Source: Escherichia phage SD2. From it: a DNA stretch of 64,000 bases. Below, piece by piece: positions 24,536-29,395 of this stretch. The stretch lies in the sequence record PQ821640; one strand, given 5' to 3'. Under the pieces are notes generated by a model. The model searched no databases and was not told where the DNA came from. It worked only from the letters and a program-made list of their open reading frames with translations. Made by a program: the position numbers and the translations under genes. Position 1 is the stretch's first letter. Each line of letters begins with the position of its first letter.

Positions 24536-25942
24536 ATGGCAACTTTTCGTGATAAGGTAGTTTCCGTAACCCTTACCTACGGTGCTACTTCAATTAGTGA
24601 AACACAGTTTGATATCCCTCTAATTCTTACAGGGCATAACGTTACTGGCAATCTTGTAGATTATTTCACTTCTTCAGACGCACTTCTGCAAGCAGGTTTT
24701 GGCACTGCCGATCCAGCTTATAAAATGGCAAAACTACTATTTGACGGTCTGTTCGCACCAGAACAAGTTATCGTCGGTAAGCGTGATGTTTCTAAAACAA
24801 CTCTAACTCCAGTAGTTGAAGATAGTGCAACTTACGTTATCACTATTAAAGCAAATTCAAAAAGCAAGGACTTCAAGTTTGTTGCCGATGATACTGCAAC
24901 TGCTCAAGAGATTGTTGTTGGTTTAACAGAAATGATCAACGCAGACATGGTGTATAAAGAATTCTTCACTGTGTCAAACGATGGTAGTGTTATCACTGTA
25001 ACCCCAGTTGCAGGTAAATACGCTACTATGGATAGTTCAGGATTCACAACTAAAGTAGAATATGCAAATGATATCTTAGAAGATATTGCTAAAATTGCAG
25101 ATTATGAAAACAGTTGGTTCTGGTTACTATCTGATTCTCACGCAGAACAAGATATTATCGATCTAGCAGGTTATGTAGAAGAGCACGATAAAGTGTATTT
25201 CTTCTCTACCTCGCAACCAGGTGTTCTAACTAAACAAGAAGATAACATTCTAGAACGCTTAGGTGATATGGGCTACAATAACACTTGTATGGCATTGTGG
25301 ATGACTAACGCTGATACAGTGTTCCCAGAAGCTGCTGTAGTTGGTTCTATCTGCTCTGCAACACCAGGTACTACTACCCTGCATGGTAAAACCCTTGTTG
25401 GTATCGAGATTGAAAAACTTGGTCAGACAGCAGAAAACTTTATCGTTCAACAGAATGGTAATATTTACCGTAAAGAACACGGTGTTCTGTTCTACCGTGA
25501 TGGTTTCATGGTTAGTGGTTTTTATGTTGACTATGTGGTACACGCTCTGTGGTTCAAAGCTCGTGTAGAAGAATCTCTGTTCGCTCTATTTAAACAGCAA
25601 TCTATGCTTGGTAGTGGTGTTAGAGCAACTTCTGCTGGTCTTGCTTTGATTCGTCAGGCTGTTACTGCAAACCCAATCCAAGTAGGTATTAACAATGGTT
25701 CTATTGCCAATGAGGTAGTAACTTCAGAGGAAACAGGACTTCTGGTAAGCCTTAAACCTACTATCTATATCCCATCTCGTGCAGATATGACTGATGCTCA
25801 AATCAATGCACGTTTGGTTGATGGTATGGTTATTGAATACGTATATGCTGGATTCTTCCACTATGTTAAAGTGCAGGTAAACGTTCTGACGAACCGCACT
25901 GCAAATAGCCAGAATTCCAATAGCTCTACTGTATCTTCATAA
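24536..25942 (+). CDS. tail sheath protein (by position and size)
   Basis: 468-aa ORF behind AGGAG, hairpin after stop, followed by a tube-sized gene. Confidence 0.5.
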   Translation: MATFRDKVVSVTLTYGATSISETQFDIPLILTGHNVTGNLVDYFTSSDALLQAGFGTADPAYKMAKLLFDGLFAPEQVIVGKRDVSKTTLTPVVEDSATYVITIKANSKSKDFKFVADDTATAQEIVVGLTEMINADMVYKEFFTVSNDGSVITVTPVAGKYATMDSSGFTTKVEYANDILEDIAKIADYENSWFWLLSDSHAEQDIIDLAGYVEEHDKVYFFSTSQPGVLTKQEDNILERLGDMGYNNTCMALWMTNADTVFPEAAVVGSICSATPGTTTLHGKTLVGIEIEKLGQTAENFIVQQNGNIYRKEHGVLFYRDGFMVSGFYVDYVVHALWFKARVEESLFALFKQQSMLGSGVRATSAGLALIRQAVTANPIQVGINNGSIANEVVTSEETGLLVSLKPTIYIPSRADMTDAQINARLVDGMVIEYVYAGFFHYVKVQVNVLTNRTANSQNSNSSTVSS

Positions 25943-26000: not shown

Positions 26001-26480
26001 TTGGATAAAATGCTTACTGGCGTAATGGCCTATGATCCTTCTCAAGTAATCCTATCTTTGGGTGGTTGGGAACCTTGGGGTTTCGCCGCAGATACCAAAA
26101 TTGTTATTAACAAAACTAACGATATCATCAACCCATATTCAGGTACTGATGGTGACGTTTCCTTGGCGCTTAGTCGTAACCGTTTAGGTACGCTAACAAT
26201 GTCACTGCAACGTACTTCCCCAGCAAACGAAGTTCTTGCTGCTTATGCACAAACGATGTATTCTACTCGTCAAGTAGCATTTAGCGTATATCTAGAAGAC
26301 CCTCGCGGATATTATATCAGCACAATTGGTTGGATTCAAAGCCAACCGGACGACACTATTGGTGAAACTATTCAAGAAAACCAATGGGTAATTGGTCTTA
26401 AAGATGCAAGCCTACTTCGTTCTACTGTAGGTGTTGGTGTTAACGCACTTAACTCTATTAGTGCTCTAACTATTCAGTAA
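26001..26480 (+). CDS. tail tube protein (by position and size)
   Basis: 159-aa ORF (TTG start) between sheath and chaperone genes. Confidence 0.45.
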   Translation: MDKMLTGVMAYDPSQVILSLGGWEPWGFAADTKIVINKTNDIINPYSGTDGDVSLALSRNRLGTLTMSLQRTSPANEVLAAYAQTMYSTRQVAFSVYLEDPRGYYISTIGWIQSQPDDTIGETIQENQWVIGLKDASLLRSTVGVGVNALNSISALTIQ

Positions 26481-26483
26481 TAA

Positions 26484-26509
26484 AAAGGGCAGAAATGCCC
26501 TTTATTTTT
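26484..26509 (+). terminator. rho-independent terminator
   Basis: AAAGGGCA-GAAA-TGCCCTTT hairpin plus ATTTTT. Confidence 0.6.
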
Positions 26510-26523
26510 AAAGAGAGGAAATA

Positions 26524-27006
26524 ATGGAACAACAAAAAGATAATACTATTGCAAAATTTGCTCGTCCAGAAGTAATGGTTGAAATTGATCTGGATGAAGG
26601 ACGCAGTGTAAAATTTAGAGTTCTCAAGTGGAGTCCAACTAAAGTTTTTGAAAGGATTCCAGAACTAGGTAGTGTACTGGCTGTTCCTATGACAATGTAT
26701 AATACTGCTCTTATGTCAGCAGACGAAGATCTAGAAGCTCGTATTGCTATGGCACTGATCCAATTATTCAGTGGTCTGGAAGAAAAAAACTTAGCCGCAT
26801 TCTTACGTAAAATTTTAGATGAAGTCTACACAGAAGCAGGACACAGTGTTTCCGATAATTTTGATGAATTGTTTTTTGCTCACCCAGAATTAGTTGTTGA
26901 CTTAGCTGCAAAAGTTCTTGAGGTGAACTATGCCCCTTTTTTCAAACGAGGTTTCGGAAAACTGTTGACCCAATTTCAAGGAATAGAGACTCTAGCGAAG
27001 AGTTAA
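26524..27006 (+). CDS. tail assembly chaperone (G-like)
   Basis: 160-aa acidic ORF immediately upstream of the tape measure gene. Confidence 0.45.
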   Translation: MEQQKDNTIAKFARPEVMVEIDLDEGRSVKFRVLKWSPTKVFERIPELGSVLAVPMTMYNTALMSADEDLEARIAMALIQLFSGLEEKNLAAFLRKILDEVYTEAGHSVSDNFDELFFAHPELVVDLAAKVLEVNYAPFFKRGFGKLLTQFQGIETLAKS

Positions 27007-27053
27007 GTCCGGCAATTAAATCAGCAATTGAAATTGCCTCACAAACCCTTAGC

Positions 27054-27281
27054 TTGACATGGTATGAAGTAATTCTTTGTAAGGTAATTAAGAATACCTC
27101 CGAAACCTTGTCCTCGTTAGATAATTATGGTGTAGATTATCTACTTAAAATTTATGAATATTTAACATTCGAAGACTATGTACAAGATCTTCACGTTAAA
27201 GATGCGGATATTAAACGTGGTCAACAGAGAACAATAAGAGAACTGGATACGGCTATGAAAAAATTAATTCCAGATTCATAA
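27054..27281 (+). CDS. possible chaperone extension (GT-like) or small independent ORF
   Basis: -1 frame stays open from 26970 across the end of the 26524 ORF; no canonical slippery heptamer seen. Confidence 0.3.
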   Translation: MTWYEVILCKVIKNTSETLSSLDNYGVDYLLKIYEYLTFEDYVQDLHVKDADIKRGQQRTIRELDTAMKKLIPDS

Positions 27282-27300
27282 GTAATACGGAGGATTACCC

Positions 27301-29280
27301 TTGTTAGAAATTAACACTTCCAAGATTAAGAATACAGTAACGTTTACTGTAGATAAAGACAGTTTAAAAAATACTAAAGACGCAATTAAAAACCTTAAAA
27401 CTTTTACAGAATCTATTGAACCATCTTTAAATATGACTAAAATGCGTCGTCAATTTAAAAGTATGGAAGAGTATGCTAAAAGAATAAGGCAGCAAATGTC
27501 AGGTCTTGGCGGCGGTAATCCTCCACCAATCCCACCAACCGGAGGTTCAAGAGGTGGTGGAAAAGGAGGAAGTGGTAGAGGTGGTTCTGGATCTTCTGGA
27601 GGACGTAAAACACCAGAGGAAAGAGCCGCAGAAGCCGCCGCTAAACGTGCAGCACTTGCTAATATGAAGCAAGACGATTTTAGTTTTAAAGCTATGCCTT
27701 TTACAAAAGCAGACAGCAGAATTCTAGAAAAATCTAAAAAGATTGTAGAAGAAACTGTTGAACTTTATCGTAAAGGTGTGATCACTAGCCAACAAATGAA
27801 TAATACTTTGGCTAGACAGTTAGAAGAACTACGCAGATCTCATAAAGAGAAGAATGCACAACTTCTTGATGAAGAGAGAGCTAGACGTAGAATTGCCCGT
27901 CTGCAAGAAGCAGAAGATAAAAGAAGACAGCGTATCCGAGAAAGAGAAAGAAAGGATTTCGAACGTCAGCAAAGAAGAGAGAAAGAAGCAAGACAACGCG
28001 ACAGACAACGTAAGCTATCTGGTGTAGGTAATGCTGCTATTGCTCTTAACCCTGCTATGTTTGGTGCTGCTCTTTTAGGTGCTGGTTTATATCAAGGTAT
28101 AAGCAAAATAGCTGAAAGTATCACAACTGCGGCAGAACGTATTAATATGGTTAGTAAAGGTGGTCAGAACGTACAGGTAAACCCTAATGCAATTTTAACA
28201 ATGCGTACTTGGGGTGAGATGAACGGTGTAGACTCTGCCAGCATTATTAAAGCCATTGACAATATTAAAGACGTTCGTGAACGTTTAGGTAATACTGTAC
28301 TCCACTCCGAATTTGATGAAAAATCAGGTAAATGGAAAGGTGGAGATAGTGGTATTAATGAAATCATGAACCAATTTGGTTGGTCGAAAGAAGACGTTGC
28401 TAAATTCCAGAACAGACCTTTAGATTTTGTTCAAGCACTTGTTAATGAAGGTCAAAAAAGAGGAATGAACTCCGCGCAAATTGGTCGTTTGATGGAAAAC
28501 CTTGGTGATGACTTAATGCACTACCAACGTATGTTTTTGGATAACGGTAAAGAGTACATGAAAGTCTTGGATATGTTAAAAAATTCAGGAGCAACTCTTA
28601 ACGATGAAAACATCAAAGCAGCACAAGATTTTGTTAAGCTGAGAGCACAAATTAGTGCAGCAGGAGAAGGTTTTACCAATAACTTACTTATAGGATTCAT
28701 GGATGGTTTAAAATCTGCACCAGATTTTGCAGAGAATATGAAAACTTTCCAAGAAGCTGCTCGTGGTCTTGGTGAAATGTCTGGTAGTATTGTAAGTAGC
28801 CTTGCAAAAATTGCGAAATATTTCCTTGATTTTTCAAATAAGGTTGGGCCAAAAAACAATTCTAAAGAAGCTGTAAGAGATTATTATAATGGTACGCAGT
28901 ATGGGTACGATGCACAGGTTGGTGGTAATCCTTGGGCTTATTGGCCTATTGGAAGAGATCAACATAAACCTGAAAATCAACCTTTAGGTGACTTTGATAG
29001 TAGTTTCTTAACTAGTGCCTTAAACCCAAGTGCTTCTAGTATCGGTTACAATAGACCTGATTTAACAGCATCTATGCTAACACCACGCCAAGGTGTTCCA
29101 GTACCATTAAGTGTAGAGAATACGGTTGTTATCCCAGACAACGCATTCCAGATTAATGTTATTCCAGATGGCTATGGTTTTAGTAATTATCTAGATGCGA
29201 CAATGAATACCAGTTTTAGTAACTTCTCACAAGGTTTAACTCTTCAGTTAAGCAGTGGACAATCTTCTACTGGTGGTTAA
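27301..29280 (+). CDS. tail tape measure protein
   Basis: 659 aa, glycine-rich tract, charged helical RRQR repeats, hydrophobic segment; TTG start behind GGAGGA. Confidence 0.6.
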   Translation: MLEINTSKIKNTVTFTVDKDSLKNTKDAIKNLKTFTESIEPSLNMTKMRRQFKSMEEYAKRIRQQMSGLGGGNPPPIPPTGGSRGGGKGGSGRGGSGSSGGRKTPEERAAEAAAKRAALANMKQDDFSFKAMPFTKADSRILEKSKKIVEETVELYRKGVITSQQMNNTLARQLEELRRSHKEKNAQLLDEERARRRIARLQEAEDKRRQRIRERERKDFERQQRREKEARQRDRQRKLSGVGNAAIALNPAMFGAALLGAGLYQGISKIAESITTAAERINMVSKGGQNVQVNPNAILTMRTWGEMNGVDSASIIKAIDNIKDVRERLGNTVLHSEFDEKSGKWKGGDSGINEIMNQFGWSKEDVAKFQNRPLDFVQALVNEGQKRGMNSAQIGRLMENLGDDLMHYQRMFLDNGKEYMKVLDMLKNSGATLNDENIKAAQDFVKLRAQISAAGEGFTNNLLIGFMDGLKSAPDFAENMKTFQEAARGLGEMSGSIVSSLAKIAKYFLDFSNKVGPKNNSKEAVRDYYNGTQYGYDAQVGGNPWAYWPIGRDQHKPENQPLGDFDSSFLTSALNPSASSIGYNRPDLTASMLTPRQGVPVPLSVENTVVIPDNAFQINVIPDGYGFSNYLDATMNTSFSNFSQGLTLQLSSGQSSTGG

Positions 29281-29286
29281 TGCATA

Positions 29287-29312
29287 AAGCCTCGCTTCGG
29301 CGGGGCTTTTTA
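29287..29312 (+). terminator. rho-independent terminator
   Basis: AAGCCTCGC-TTCG-GCGGGGCTT hairpin plus TTTTTA. Confidence 0.6.
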
Positions 29313-29318
29313 TTTGTC

Positions 29319-29347
29319 TTGACAAAGAGTTGTTTTTCGTGATAAAA
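29319..29347 (+). promoter_or_regulatory. sigma70-like promoter (TTGACA-N17-ATAAAA)
   Basis: Consensus -35 right after the terminator. Confidence 0.35.
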
Positions 29348-29395
29348 TGAGTGATAAGGGAGAATGTTTCTTATCACATTAAGAGGTAAAATTAT

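Follow-up and report, generated by a model that had tools for sequence, protein, structure and literature searches.

A probable programmed -1 frameshift of the lambda G/GT type at the gene for the tail assembly chaperone in Escherichia phage SD2

Between the tail assembly chaperone (TAC) gene and the tape measure protein (TMP) gene of Escherichia phage SD2, a phi92-like coliphage (Justusliebigvirus), there is a short open reading frame (ORF) annotated as "gp133". Is this ORF a gene in its own right, or is it the 3' part of a longer chaperone that is made by frameshifting, as for gpG/gpGT of phage lambda? We addressed this question in a window of 64,000 nt from sequence record PQ821640. A first-pass annotation of the same window had raised the possibility of a G/GT-like frameshift, by an atypical mechanism. 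The G/GT-like arrangement is borne out and has strong comparative evidence behind it, whereas the mechanism need not be atypical, given that a textbook slippery decamer is present.

Locus layout and the -1 open frame

The genes at the locus are ordered sheath, tube, TAC, -1 ORF, TMP, with the following features:

26001-26480, + strand: tail tube gene (phi92 gp131; PHROG 280 at 1.8e-36; Pfam PF11681)
26484-26503, + strand: terminator-like hairpin, then ATTTTT, in the gap between the tube and chaperone genes (consensus scan)
26524-27006, + strand: TAC-N chaperone ORF, 160 aa (phi92 gp132), made by standard decoding
26920-26925, + strand: internal Shine-Dalgarno (SD)-like GAGGTG, a possible 5' stimulator
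26934-26943, + strand: slippery decamer C_CCT_TTT_TTC, two overlapping canonical heptamers in the 0-frame register
26943-27281, + strand: -1-frame extension, 112 codons and TAA, predicted linker and C-terminal domain of the fusion
27054-27056, + strand: TTG annotated as the gp133 start, the first ATG/GTG/TTG in the -1 frame
27301-29280, + strand: tape measure gene (phi92 gp134; PHROG 16051, E = 0)
29286-29309, + strand: terminator-like hairpin directly 3' of the tape measure gene (10-bp stem, 6 of its pairs GC, followed by a T-run)

The ORF at 26524-27006, described at first pass as chaperone-like, indeed exists, and on the evidence of profile matches its product is a tail assembly chaperone: residues 29-144 match PF21822 (Phage_TAC_15) with 80.8 bits (E = 1.6e-22; the curated cut-off is 22 bits), and the 160-aa product matches PHROG 3840 (tail assembly chaperone) at 4.4e-54. 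The ATG of this ORF has an upstream anti-SD duplex energy of -7.8 kcal/mol. With the tube gene as its upstream neighbour, the chaperone gene is in a G/GT-like position. On the other side, the tape measure gene has a ribosome-binding site (RBS), GGAGG at 27289-27293 (-9.5 kcal/mol), and its product, gp134, is the presumed client of the chaperone. Both flanking assignments, gp131 as the tube protein and gp134 as the TMP, have been confirmed structurally by cryo-EM of phi92 (PMC13450770). The hairpin at 26484-26503, at a place matching an annotated terminator in phAPEC8, is a probable upstream boundary or attenuator of a chaperone-tape measure unit, and the hairpin at 29286-29309 is probably the 3' end of that unit.

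The -1 frame opens at 26922, just past TGA 26919-26921, runs over the chaperone stop codon (TAA 27004-27006) and ends at TAA 27279-27281, 19 nt before the start of the tape measure gene at 27301. The first-pass annotation had correctly followed this frame across the chaperone stop codon to 27281, just before the tape measure gene; it had placed the opening at 26970 and given an overlap of 37 nt, and both values need correction. Because the -1 frame opens at 26922, its overlap with the chaperone ORF is 85 nt. A TGA at 26966-26968 sits in the +1 frame, and was probably given the wrong frame in the earlier analysis. The +1 frame at the overlap is closed after 7 codons. For similar arrangements we surveyed every non-overlapping ORF in the window with 100 aa or more, 58 in all. 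At least 60 open -1 codons follow 14 of these ORFs, mostly because the next gene occupies that frame; of the 58, the chaperone ORF alone has both such an extension and an overlap containing an in-register heptamer.

The -1 extension at 26943-27281 includes the annotated gp133 ORF (27054-27281) and matches PHROG 16039 at 3.8e-45. The predicted fusion protein, TAC-NC, is 252 aa long, with 140 aa from the chaperone followed by a linker that varies and then by a ~90-aa conserved domain, and its predicted junction sequence is ...VLEVNYAPFFQTR. The translation of 26943-27053 in the -1 frame contains the peptides TVDPISR and DSSEELSPAIK, and the C-terminal peptides of TAC-N, read in the 0 frame, are GFGK and LLTQFQGIETLAK.

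Two overlapping heptamers and their conservation

The slippery sequence at the chaperone overlap is CCCUUUUUUC. The decamer comprises C_CCT_TTT (26934-26940) and T_TTT_TTC (26937-26943), both of which are inside the overlap, and the distance from it to the 0-frame stop codon downstream is 61 nt. The earlier report that the overlap lacks a canonical XXXYYYZ heptamer, and hence that the mechanism would be atypical, arose because the start of the -1 open frame had been misplaced. Both heptamers are H_HH.U_UU.Y motifs, a class that experiments rank with the most efficient for -1 shifting in E. coli, and IS elements make use of U_UU.U_UU.C (PMC4066793). A slip at either heptamer would give an identical protein, ...NYAPFF|QTRFRK..., such that C_CCU_UUU_UUC offers two consecutive chances to slip and one product. 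There are nine efficient-class heptamers in window ORFs of at least 150 aa, and a long -1 ORF (112-113 codons) follows only these two. The remaining efficient heptamers were considered as extra sites of programmed ribosomal frameshifting (PRF) and rejected, their -1 ORFs being at most 30 codons long.

T_TTT_TTC is found in the same codon position in all 15 GenBank relatives (Stephanstirmvirinae and Vequintavirinae, with TAC identity down to about 29%), at 46 of 46 IMG/VR loci, and in Aeromonas phage phiA009. The third bases of the codons NNT TTT TTC are invariant, with no synonymous change; elsewhere, third positions differ in 0.55-0.63 of pairs, and dS is about 1.8-1.9 (saturated). Among the 217 aligned codon columns, a run of three consecutive codons with invariant third bases is seen at only 10. 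A conserved FF dipeptide partly explains why TTT TTC is kept, and only the synonymous-site argument tells the two apart. The Vequintavirinae relatives read G CTG TTT TTT C, which contains GTTTTT. The slippery site and the arrangement are kept in diverged relatives, and in distant ones other canonical heptamers replace it: Rheinheimera phage Barba has lost the FF codons and has G_GGA_AAG in register three codons downstream, and in Vibrio phage S4-7 the heptamer is A_AAT_TTT, three codons upstream. In both of these phages a long -1 ORF persists, and its C-domain is still recognisably similar. All 64 relatives examined, among which TAC identity goes down to about 27-30%, have a -1 frame that stays open from 5' of the heptamer until shortly before the TMP gene.

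We propose, with a probability of about 0.9, that the 252-aa fusion is made at this locus by programmed -1 ribosomal frameshifting, as in the lambda G/GT (P2 E/E+E') systems. Most ribosomes would read 26524-27006 to the TAA and produce the 160-aa TAC-N. A minority would move back by one base, at C_CCU_UUU or at U_UUU_UUC one codon further on, and would then read the -1 frame to TAA 27279-27281, producing TAC-NC. By analogy with lambda gpG/gpGT, we infer a division of labour in which the N-domain, present in both products, would coat the TMP gp134, recruitment of the tail tube protein gp131 would fall to the rarer C-domain, and both TAC-N and TAC-NC would be absent from the finished virion. The phi92 virion model built from cryo-EM data (PMC13450770) includes neither gp132 nor gp133, which fits a chaperone role, although a protein missing from the model may still be in the particle.

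Our literature search retrieved no mass spectrometry, reporter or mutant data on the chaperone frameshift site. When we sought an in-frame fusion of the N and C parts in a collection of 5.8 billion proteins, we recovered only TAC-N proteins of 151-175 aa, and a query with the C part recovered only ORFs of 64-84 aa; since frames are not joined by gene callers, the lack of a natural in-frame fusion carries no information. The fusion models from AlphaFold2 had a pLDDT of 43 (single sequence) or 48 (47-row alignment), too poor for fold comparison, and a PDB sequence search with the TAC profile gave chance matches only, the best (E = 0.067) being to an unrelated protein.

Alternative explanations for the downstream frame

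The GenBank records inspected all treat the two ORFs as separate, the downstream one being a "hypothetical protein" or having no feature, and gp133 (75 aa) could in principle be translated on its own from TTG 27054, e.g. by re-initiation after TAA 27004-27006, with the heptamers incidental. TTG is usable as a start codon, and this one is 47 nt past the chaperone stop codon, a conceivable range for re-initiation. However, TTG 27054 has no SD; at +2.2 kcal/mol it is weaker than about 99% of random positions, compared with SD energies of -5.7 to -10 kcal/mol for ten neighbouring tail-module genes, and the phi92 record annotates an RBS for genes 130, 132 and 134, and none for 133. The sequence immediately upstream of the TTG also argues against initiation there. 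The -1 frame has no ATG, GTG or TTG between 26922 and 27054, yet the 16 codons 5' of the TTG carry the signature of -1-frame coding sequence: in the annotated intergenic segment 27006-27053, differences at the three codon positions are 0.38/0.35/0.67, i.e. biased to the third position, and dN/dS in the -1 frame is 0.32, against 0.28 for the N-domain and 0.28 for the annotated downstream ORF. Moreover, the gp133 starts annotated in relatives are at differing, non-homologous alignment columns, some of them deep in the conserved domain, and independent translation would leave unexplained both the synonymous invariance of NNT TTT TTC and the replacement of the heptamer in Barba and S4-7. TTG 27054 is probably not a real initiation site, the "gp133" ORF is most likely the 3' part of the fusion and not a separate gene, and we give very little credence to a two-gene arrangement.

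The same fusion would be produced if RNA polymerase were to slip on the T6 run (C4T6), adding one U to some transcripts. The conserved core is a homopolymeric T6, one extra U yields ...PFFQTR..., and slippage on poly-A/T operates in some bacterial and IS genes (PMC5009743). Nonetheless, efficient slippage by bacterial RNA polymerase is documented at runs of 9 A or T, and slippage is undetectable at T5C5 without a 5' nascent hairpin (PMC5009743), whereas the run here has only 6 T and no conserved 5' hairpin, which puts it outside the criteria described for transcriptional slippage. Distant relatives carry G_GGA_AAG or A_AAT_TTT, which are ribosomal heptamers and not polymerase slippage runs, and the X_XXY_YYZ register, irrelevant to a polymerase, is held everywhere, although shared ancestry could also account for the register. 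There are also 18 further T6-7 runs on the + strand of the window. We consider polymerase slippage to be an improbable source of the fusion. As for the -1 frame being open by chance, or being a decaying remnant with no expressed fusion, ~44 stop-free off-frame codons are not extremely rare alone at 38% GC, and the 14 ORFs of our survey with at least 60 open -1 codons show that such stretches occur in this genome window. By contrast, a chance frame would not be expected to stay open in 64 of 64 relatives despite their low TAC identity, or to be under purifying selection in relatives that are not near-identical (dS about 1.8), and the chaperone ORF alone in the window has both the extension and the in-register heptamer. 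These comparative data effectively refute a chance or remnant frame, to which we assign almost no probability.

Possible stimulators, known systems and annotation

If ribosomes shift at the decamer as we propose, GAGGTG may contribute as a 5' stimulator. It lies 11 nt 5' of T_TTT_TTC and 8 nt 5' of C_CCT_TTT, inside or near the 9-14 nt spacing range of SD-like stimulators of -1 frameshifting (PMC5009743). The anti-SD duplex energy of this element is -6.9 kcal/mol, equal to that of real RBSs in the window, and its Glu codon is GAG in 13 of the 15 relatives; GAA makes up 79% of Glu codons in the window. Neither phiTE nor POP15 conserves the element, and Certrevirus lacks it. It is also confounded with a conserved peptide, LEVNY.

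We did not detect a 3' stimulatory stem-loop or pseudoknot of the dnaX, IS3/IS911 or viral type 5-9 nt past the heptamer. The fold of 26944-27010 has a minimum free energy (MFE) of -11.3 kcal/mol against a shuffle mean of -11.36 kcal/mol (z = 0.02), RNAalifold predicted 0 pairs downstream of the heptamers in 8 relatives, and MFE folds made relative by relative had no common downstream hairpin. A candidate hairpin upstream, AGTTC...GAACT (26912-26928), was rejected, with 0 pairs predicted by RNAalifold in 15 relatives, and an Rfam scan of 26300-27400 found nothing relevant, giving a sub-threshold SraG match (minus strand, over the terminator) and a chance match to CRISPR-DR35. Because no 3' stimulatory structure is predicted, the efficiency of frameshifting may be low. 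A low efficiency is what G/GT systems need.

The sequence GGTTTCG, 6-9 nt downstream of the site, is invariant; it has an in-register U_UUC tetramer, and it encodes a conserved basic R-F-R(K) motif directly past the shift. Were GGTTTCG or the nascent RFRK peptide to provide a backup slip site, or stimulation of a new kind from the 3' side or the nascent chain, several myovirus subfamilies would share a novel form of bacterial -1 PRF control. It is doubtful, in our judgement, that the site is a structure-independent signal tuned by the double heptamer, the upstream GAGGTG and the downstream GGTTTCG.

Among known systems, lambda gpG/gpGT (made at a ratio of 30:1; Levin et al., 1993; Xu et al., 2004, 2013, 2014; summarised in PMC5009743) is alike in gene position, with the major tail (tube) gene on one side and the tape measure gene on the other. 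As in SD2, both products begin with the same N-terminal part, no separate start serves the second ORF, and neither product is expected in the virion. The lambda heptamer is G_GGA_AAG, as opposed to C_CCU_UUU_UUC in SD2, although the Barbavirus relative uses G_GGA_AAG; SD2 is a large contractile-tailed myovirus, unlike lambda, and the known likeness of its TAC family, PF21822, to gpG/gpT is one of layout, not of sequence similarity. P2 E/E+E' shifts at TTTTTTG without a downstream structure (Christie et al., 2002; PMC3091744). It shares with SD2 a myovirus tail operon, a -1 shift on a T-run heptamer (T_TTT_TTG in P2, T_TTT_TTC in SD2), the lack of downstream RNA structure, and conservation of the site across relatives of low identity. 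The P2 proteins are smaller, at 91 and 142 aa versus 160 and 252 aa in SD2, and the likeness drawn here is one of locus and site; compared with P2, SD2 adds the overlapping C_CCU_UUU heptamer and the possible 5' SD-like element.

For Vandenendeviridae (Pakpunavirus Adele) and Andersonviridae, in silico work has put forward a -1 shift on poly-T between TAC-N and TAC-NC, where GTTTTT is conserved; Stephanstirmvirinae and Vequintavirinae are only named in that work as related clades, and their TAC frameshift is not reported there (PMC12846349, 2025). The Vandenendeviridae and Andersonviridae belong to the same broad Felix O1/rV5-like myovirus lineage as SD2, and resemble it in locus layout, with the downstream piece annotated as hypothetical or intergenic, and in having a poly-T slippery site and a -1 frame that is never interrupted; the likeness meant here is one of layout and site. 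Their motif has G before the T run, whereas the phi92 group has CCC, which creates the extra C_CCU_UUU heptamer. E. coli dnaX and IS elements resemble SD2 in combining a canonical heptamer with an upstream SD-like element (GAGGTG in SD2). At dnaX the shift reaches about 50%, and a strong 3' stem-loop is present; by contrast, we found no 3' structure in SD2, and the SD-like element is not universal among its relatives. Frameshifting at pheL (PMC3082878) is not relevant to this site, since it is +1 shifting at CCC_UGA.

This is most likely an ordinary G/GT-type frameshift, unannotated in every record inspected, and no new mechanism. None of the public records of 22 relatives that we inspected has a joined CDS, and three leave the downstream ORF unannotated; records of Stephanstirmvirinae, Vequintavirinae and related phages have a "tail assembly chaperone" and a "hypothetical protein", or omit the downstream ORF. 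About 360 to 500 phage records contain a TAC homologue, and these are probably similarly affected. Many of the affected phages are candidates for phage therapy. The main value of the proposed frameshift is for annotation: the 252-aa fusion would remove a spurious gene and assign one protein to the "function unknown" PHROG 16039, and the G/GT rule would reach another large lineage of contractile-tailed phages. Lastly, the relatives provide a natural series of heptamer turnover (U_UUU_UUC, G_GGA_AAG, A_AAU_UUU) without RNA structure, which could help to calibrate PRFect-like predictors.

A predicted frameshift in the tail assembly chaperone gene

Comparison with related phages makes it very likely (a probability of about 0.9) that a -1 ribosomal frameshift at 26934-26943 yields a 252-aa fusion of the tail assembly chaperone (TAC) to the product of the frame ahead of the tape measure gene. 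The region (1,400 bases) shares 99.4% identity with Escherichia phage phi92 and dozens of further Justusliebigvirus genomes (subfamily Stephanstirmvirinae). Its features, with genes in phi92 naming, are:

24536-25942, gp130, tail sheath
26001-26480, gp131, tail tube
26484-26503, terminator-like hairpin between the tube and TAC genes
26524-27006, gp132, tail assembly chaperone
26920-26925, Shine-Dalgarno-like GAGGTG, candidate 5' stimulator (anti-SD -6.9 kcal/mol)
26934-26940, heptamer C_CCT_TTT, in 0-frame register, overlapping T_TTT_TTC
26937-26943, heptamer T_TTT_TTC, in 0-frame register
27054-27281, gp133, without assigned function
27301-29280, gp134, tape measure
29286-29348, terminator-like hairpin, then a sigma-70-like promoter, right after the tape measure gene

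The 160-aa ORF, described as chaperone-like in the first-pass annotation, is indeed a tail assembly chaperone gene, matching Pfam PF21822 (Phage_TAC_15; 80.8 bits, E = 1.6e-22) and PHROG 3840 (E = 4e-54). A 2026 cryo-EM study of phi92 confirmed the roles of gp130, gp131 and gp134 as sheath, tube and tape measure; gp132 and gp133 are not listed there as virion proteins, and neither a chaperone nor a frameshift is mentioned (PMC13450770). The homologue of 26524-27006 is labelled "tail tube protein" in MZ501063 (EmilieFrey) and MZ501084 (JohannJBalmer), a label that conflicts with Pfam, PHROG and the cryo-EM identification of gp131 as the tube.

As first proposed, the -1 frame crosses the chaperone stop; it ends at TAA 27279-27281, 19 nt before the tape measure start. 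That frame had been described as open from 26970, with a 37-nt overlap. The last upstream -1 stop is TGA 26919-26921, so the frame in fact opens at 26922 and the overlap measures 85 nt; the first-pass annotation was probably misled by TGA 26966-26968, which is in the +1 frame. The true overlap includes GCC CCT TTT TTC AAA in 0-frame register, and therefore both C_CCT_TTT and T_TTT_TTC, so the statement that it holds no canonical XXXYYYZ heptamer was incorrect. The suggested joining of the chaperone to the downstream frame, on the G/GT pattern of tailed phages, stands in substance; its supposed atypicality was an artefact of the misread frame. A slip on either heptamer would give the same product (...NYAPFF/QTRFRK..., with the slash at the shift; 140 + 112 = 252 aa). 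The chaperone gene has a further canonical heptamer in register, A_AAA_AAC at 26784-26790; the -1 frame is closed there, the motif is not kept beyond KP13-26 (A_AAA_AAT), and it is probably incidental.

Both slip-site heptamers fall in the H_HH.U_UU.Y class, one of those with the highest -1 frameshifting efficiency measured in E. coli (Sharma et al., PMC4066793). U_UU.U_UU.C and C_CC.U_UU.U shift at >0.1% without any stimulator and are rarer in E. coli genes than expected; IS elements make use of U_UU.U_UU.C (PMC4066793). We detected no 3' stimulatory structure: the fold of the 67 nt downstream is no more stable than that of shuffled sequences (z = 0.02), RNAalifold predicts no pairs downstream or upstream of the slip site among the relatives, and Rfam gives nothing relevant at the locus. 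The T_TTT_TTG site of the phage P2 E/E+E' pair likewise lacks a structure (PMC3091744), and the lambda G:GT ratio is ~30:1 (PMC5009743); by analogy, a site without a 3' structure would suit a system needing just a few per cent of shifted product. On the 5' side, GAGGTG is spaced 11 nt from T_TTT_TTC and 8 nt from C_CCT_TTT; for -1 stimulators a spacing window of 9-14 nt has been published (PMC5009743). Its Glu codon is GAG in 13 of 15 relatives, and GAA makes up 79% of Glu codons here. Because GAGGTG overlaps the conserved LEVNY peptide and is degenerate in Certrevirus, we infer only a possible role as a 5' stimulator.

Conservation of the predicted slip site

We collected 14 GenBank or metagenome relatives from two subfamilies (TAC identity to the window down to ~29%), 46 IMG/VR loci, and the more distant phages Vibrio S4-7, Aeromonas phiA009 and Rheinheimera Barba4A. 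In every one of these relatives the -1 frame (102-149 codons long) is already open 5' of the slip position and stays so until just short of the tape measure gene; in phiTE it ends just short of a small inserted ORF. T_TTT_TTC is found at the same aligned codons (NY-x-x-F-F) in all 15 GenBank-type sequences, all 46 IMG/VR loci and phiA009, preceded by CCT, TGT, TCT or AGT, always a T-ending codon. When the 15 fusion proteins are aligned by codon, the third base is invariant in only 10 of 217 ungapped columns, and the consecutive slip codons account for three of these; besides two Trp codons, the only invariant codons are the slip-site TTT-TTC and one TTT just downstream. Elsewhere, third positions differ in 55-63% of pairs, and dS is saturated (~1.8-1.9).

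Two distant lineages have swapped the heptamer for another canonical one, retaining slipperiness. The FF codons are lost in Barba4A, which carries the lambda heptamer, G_GGA_AAG, a few codons away; S4-7 carries A_AAT_TTT, also a few codons from the slip-site position. Each of these replacements is in register within the overlap and is followed by a C-terminal domain that is still recognisably similar. Xu et al. (2004) are said to have made such turnover, with slipperiness kept, the classical signature defining the family.

The conservation of the locus excludes a chance ORF. Of the window's 58 non-overlapping ORFs that reach 100 aa, just one combines a -1 extension of at least 60 codons with an in-register heptamer in the overlap. 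Nine efficient-class heptamers lie inside long ORFs, and only the two at the slip site open into a long -1 ORF (112-113 codons, versus at most 30 for the others). Phe-Phe dipeptides in the window's long ORFs start with TTC in 30 of 38 cases and with TTT in eight, TTT being 61% of Phe codons. This preference fits selection against slippery T-runs in the phage's ordinary genes; outside the slip site, the genome avoids such runs.

All 15 relatives carry an invariant GGTTTCG-like element at 26950-26956 (-1 codons 26949-26960), 6-9 nt downstream of the heptamer. It includes an in-register U_UUC tetramer (U_UUA in rV5) and a TTT, one of just five codons that never vary in the alignment. The element encodes G-F in the 0 frame and the conserved basic R-F-R(K) directly after the shift in the -1 frame, and this dual coding may explain its invariance; less probably, it might serve as a backup slip site or a stimulator.

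Alternatives to ribosomal frameshifting

Independent translation of gp133, as its annotation from TTG 27054 implies, is contradicted by the synonymous conservation of the heptamer and by a coding signal upstream of the annotated start. Between the chaperone stop and the TTG (27006-27053), codon-position difference fractions in the -1 frame are 0.38/0.35/0.67, and dN/dS is 0.32, versus 0.28 for the chaperone N-domain and 0.28 for the annotated gp133 ORF. By dN/dS this "intergenic" stretch is indistinguishable from both, indicating that it is coding in the -1 frame, and its peptide, SPAIKSAIEIASQTLS, aligns with matching residues in all relatives. From its opening at 26922, the -1 frame has no ATG, GTG or TTG before 27054, so these codons are reachable only by ribosomes from the chaperone ORF. 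TTG 27054 is itself an unlikely start: it has no Shine-Dalgarno sequence (anti-SD duplex +2.2 kcal/mol, weaker than ~99% of random positions), whereas ten neighbouring tail-module genes range from -5.7 to -10 kcal/mol, the only exception being a mechanically called start at 23814. The phi92 annotation gives ribosome-binding sites for genes 130, 132 and 134 and none for 133. Nor are the annotated starts homologous among relatives; they fall at differing alignment columns, some deep in the conserved domain, and called ORFs in the protein collection vary from 64 to 84 aa. The ATG at 23814 opens a 233-aa ORF (23814-24515) without a Shine-Dalgarno sequence (+0.9 kcal/mol); phi92 gp129 is annotated as 657 nt (218 aa), and the true start is probably ~45 nt downstream.

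Transcriptional slippage on the T6 run would give an identical protein. However, efficient slippage by bacterial RNA polymerase is documented for runs of 9 A or T, and on T5C5 a 5' hairpin is needed for slippage to be detectable (PMC5009743); RNAalifold finds no conserved 5' hairpin at the slip site. Moreover, the replacement heptamers of Barba4A and S4-7 are ribosomal motifs, not polymerase motifs.

Predicted function, expression and annotation

The fusion produced by ribosomal frameshifting would have three parts, as aligned: a conserved N-domain; a short basic RFR(K) directly after the shift, then a variable-length linker (Gly/Ser-rich and longer in Vequintavirinae); and a conserved C-domain of ~90 aa, probably helical. 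Predicted models of the fusion (pLDDT 43 and 48) are too poor for fold comparison, and no relative was found in the PDB. If labour is divided as in lambda (PMC5009743), the N-domain common to both chaperone forms would bind gp134, the tape measure protein, and the less abundant C-terminal domain would bring in gp131, the tube protein; both forms would be gone by the time the tail is complete.

The chaperone-tape measure unit is bracketed by two terminator-like hairpins, with no promoter-like site ahead of the TAC start and a strong sigma-70-like promoter at 29319-29348 (TTGACA-18-TAAAAT, 11/12 match with TG). This layout suggests that both genes are expressed via terminator read-through, below the level of sheath and tube. 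On the minus strand, 26481-26606 gives a sub-threshold match to the Rfam SraG sRNA (36.3 bits versus a gathering score of 50, E = 0.0003), which overlaps the tube/TAC hairpin and the start of the TAC gene; the hairpin probably accounts for it.

The G/GT paradigm is textbook knowledge. In December 2025 an in silico case was made for the same -1 frameshift, at a GTTTTT motif, in TAC genes of Vandenendeviridae and Andersonviridae; in that paper Stephanstirmvirinae and Vequintavirinae appear solely as related clades (PMC12846349). Chaperones, tape measure and slippage all go unmentioned in the rV5 genome paper, and our literature search found no frameshift report for phi92-like or rV5-like phages. 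A joined CDS is present in none of the 22 relatives' records inspected, and the downstream ORF is unannotated in three. The predicted frameshift is therefore a new, unannotated example of a well-known kind, not a new mechanism; its value lies in putting right the annotation of several hundred phage genomes and in providing a clean structure-free case with heptamer turnover.

The phi92 RefSeq record places a "hypothetical tRNA" inside the tail sheath gene (record 987-1079, approximately window 25487-25579); this looks spurious, since ARAGORN finds no tRNA in 25300-25800. More than 20 "Campylobacter phage" records with C. jejuni as host (MG065639, MG065645, MG065656, MG065689 and others) match the locus. 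Some are 99.4% DNA-identical to phi92-like coliphages here, others have a TAC up to 100% protein-identical to that of rV5-like coliphages, and the host attribution of the series looks doubtful.
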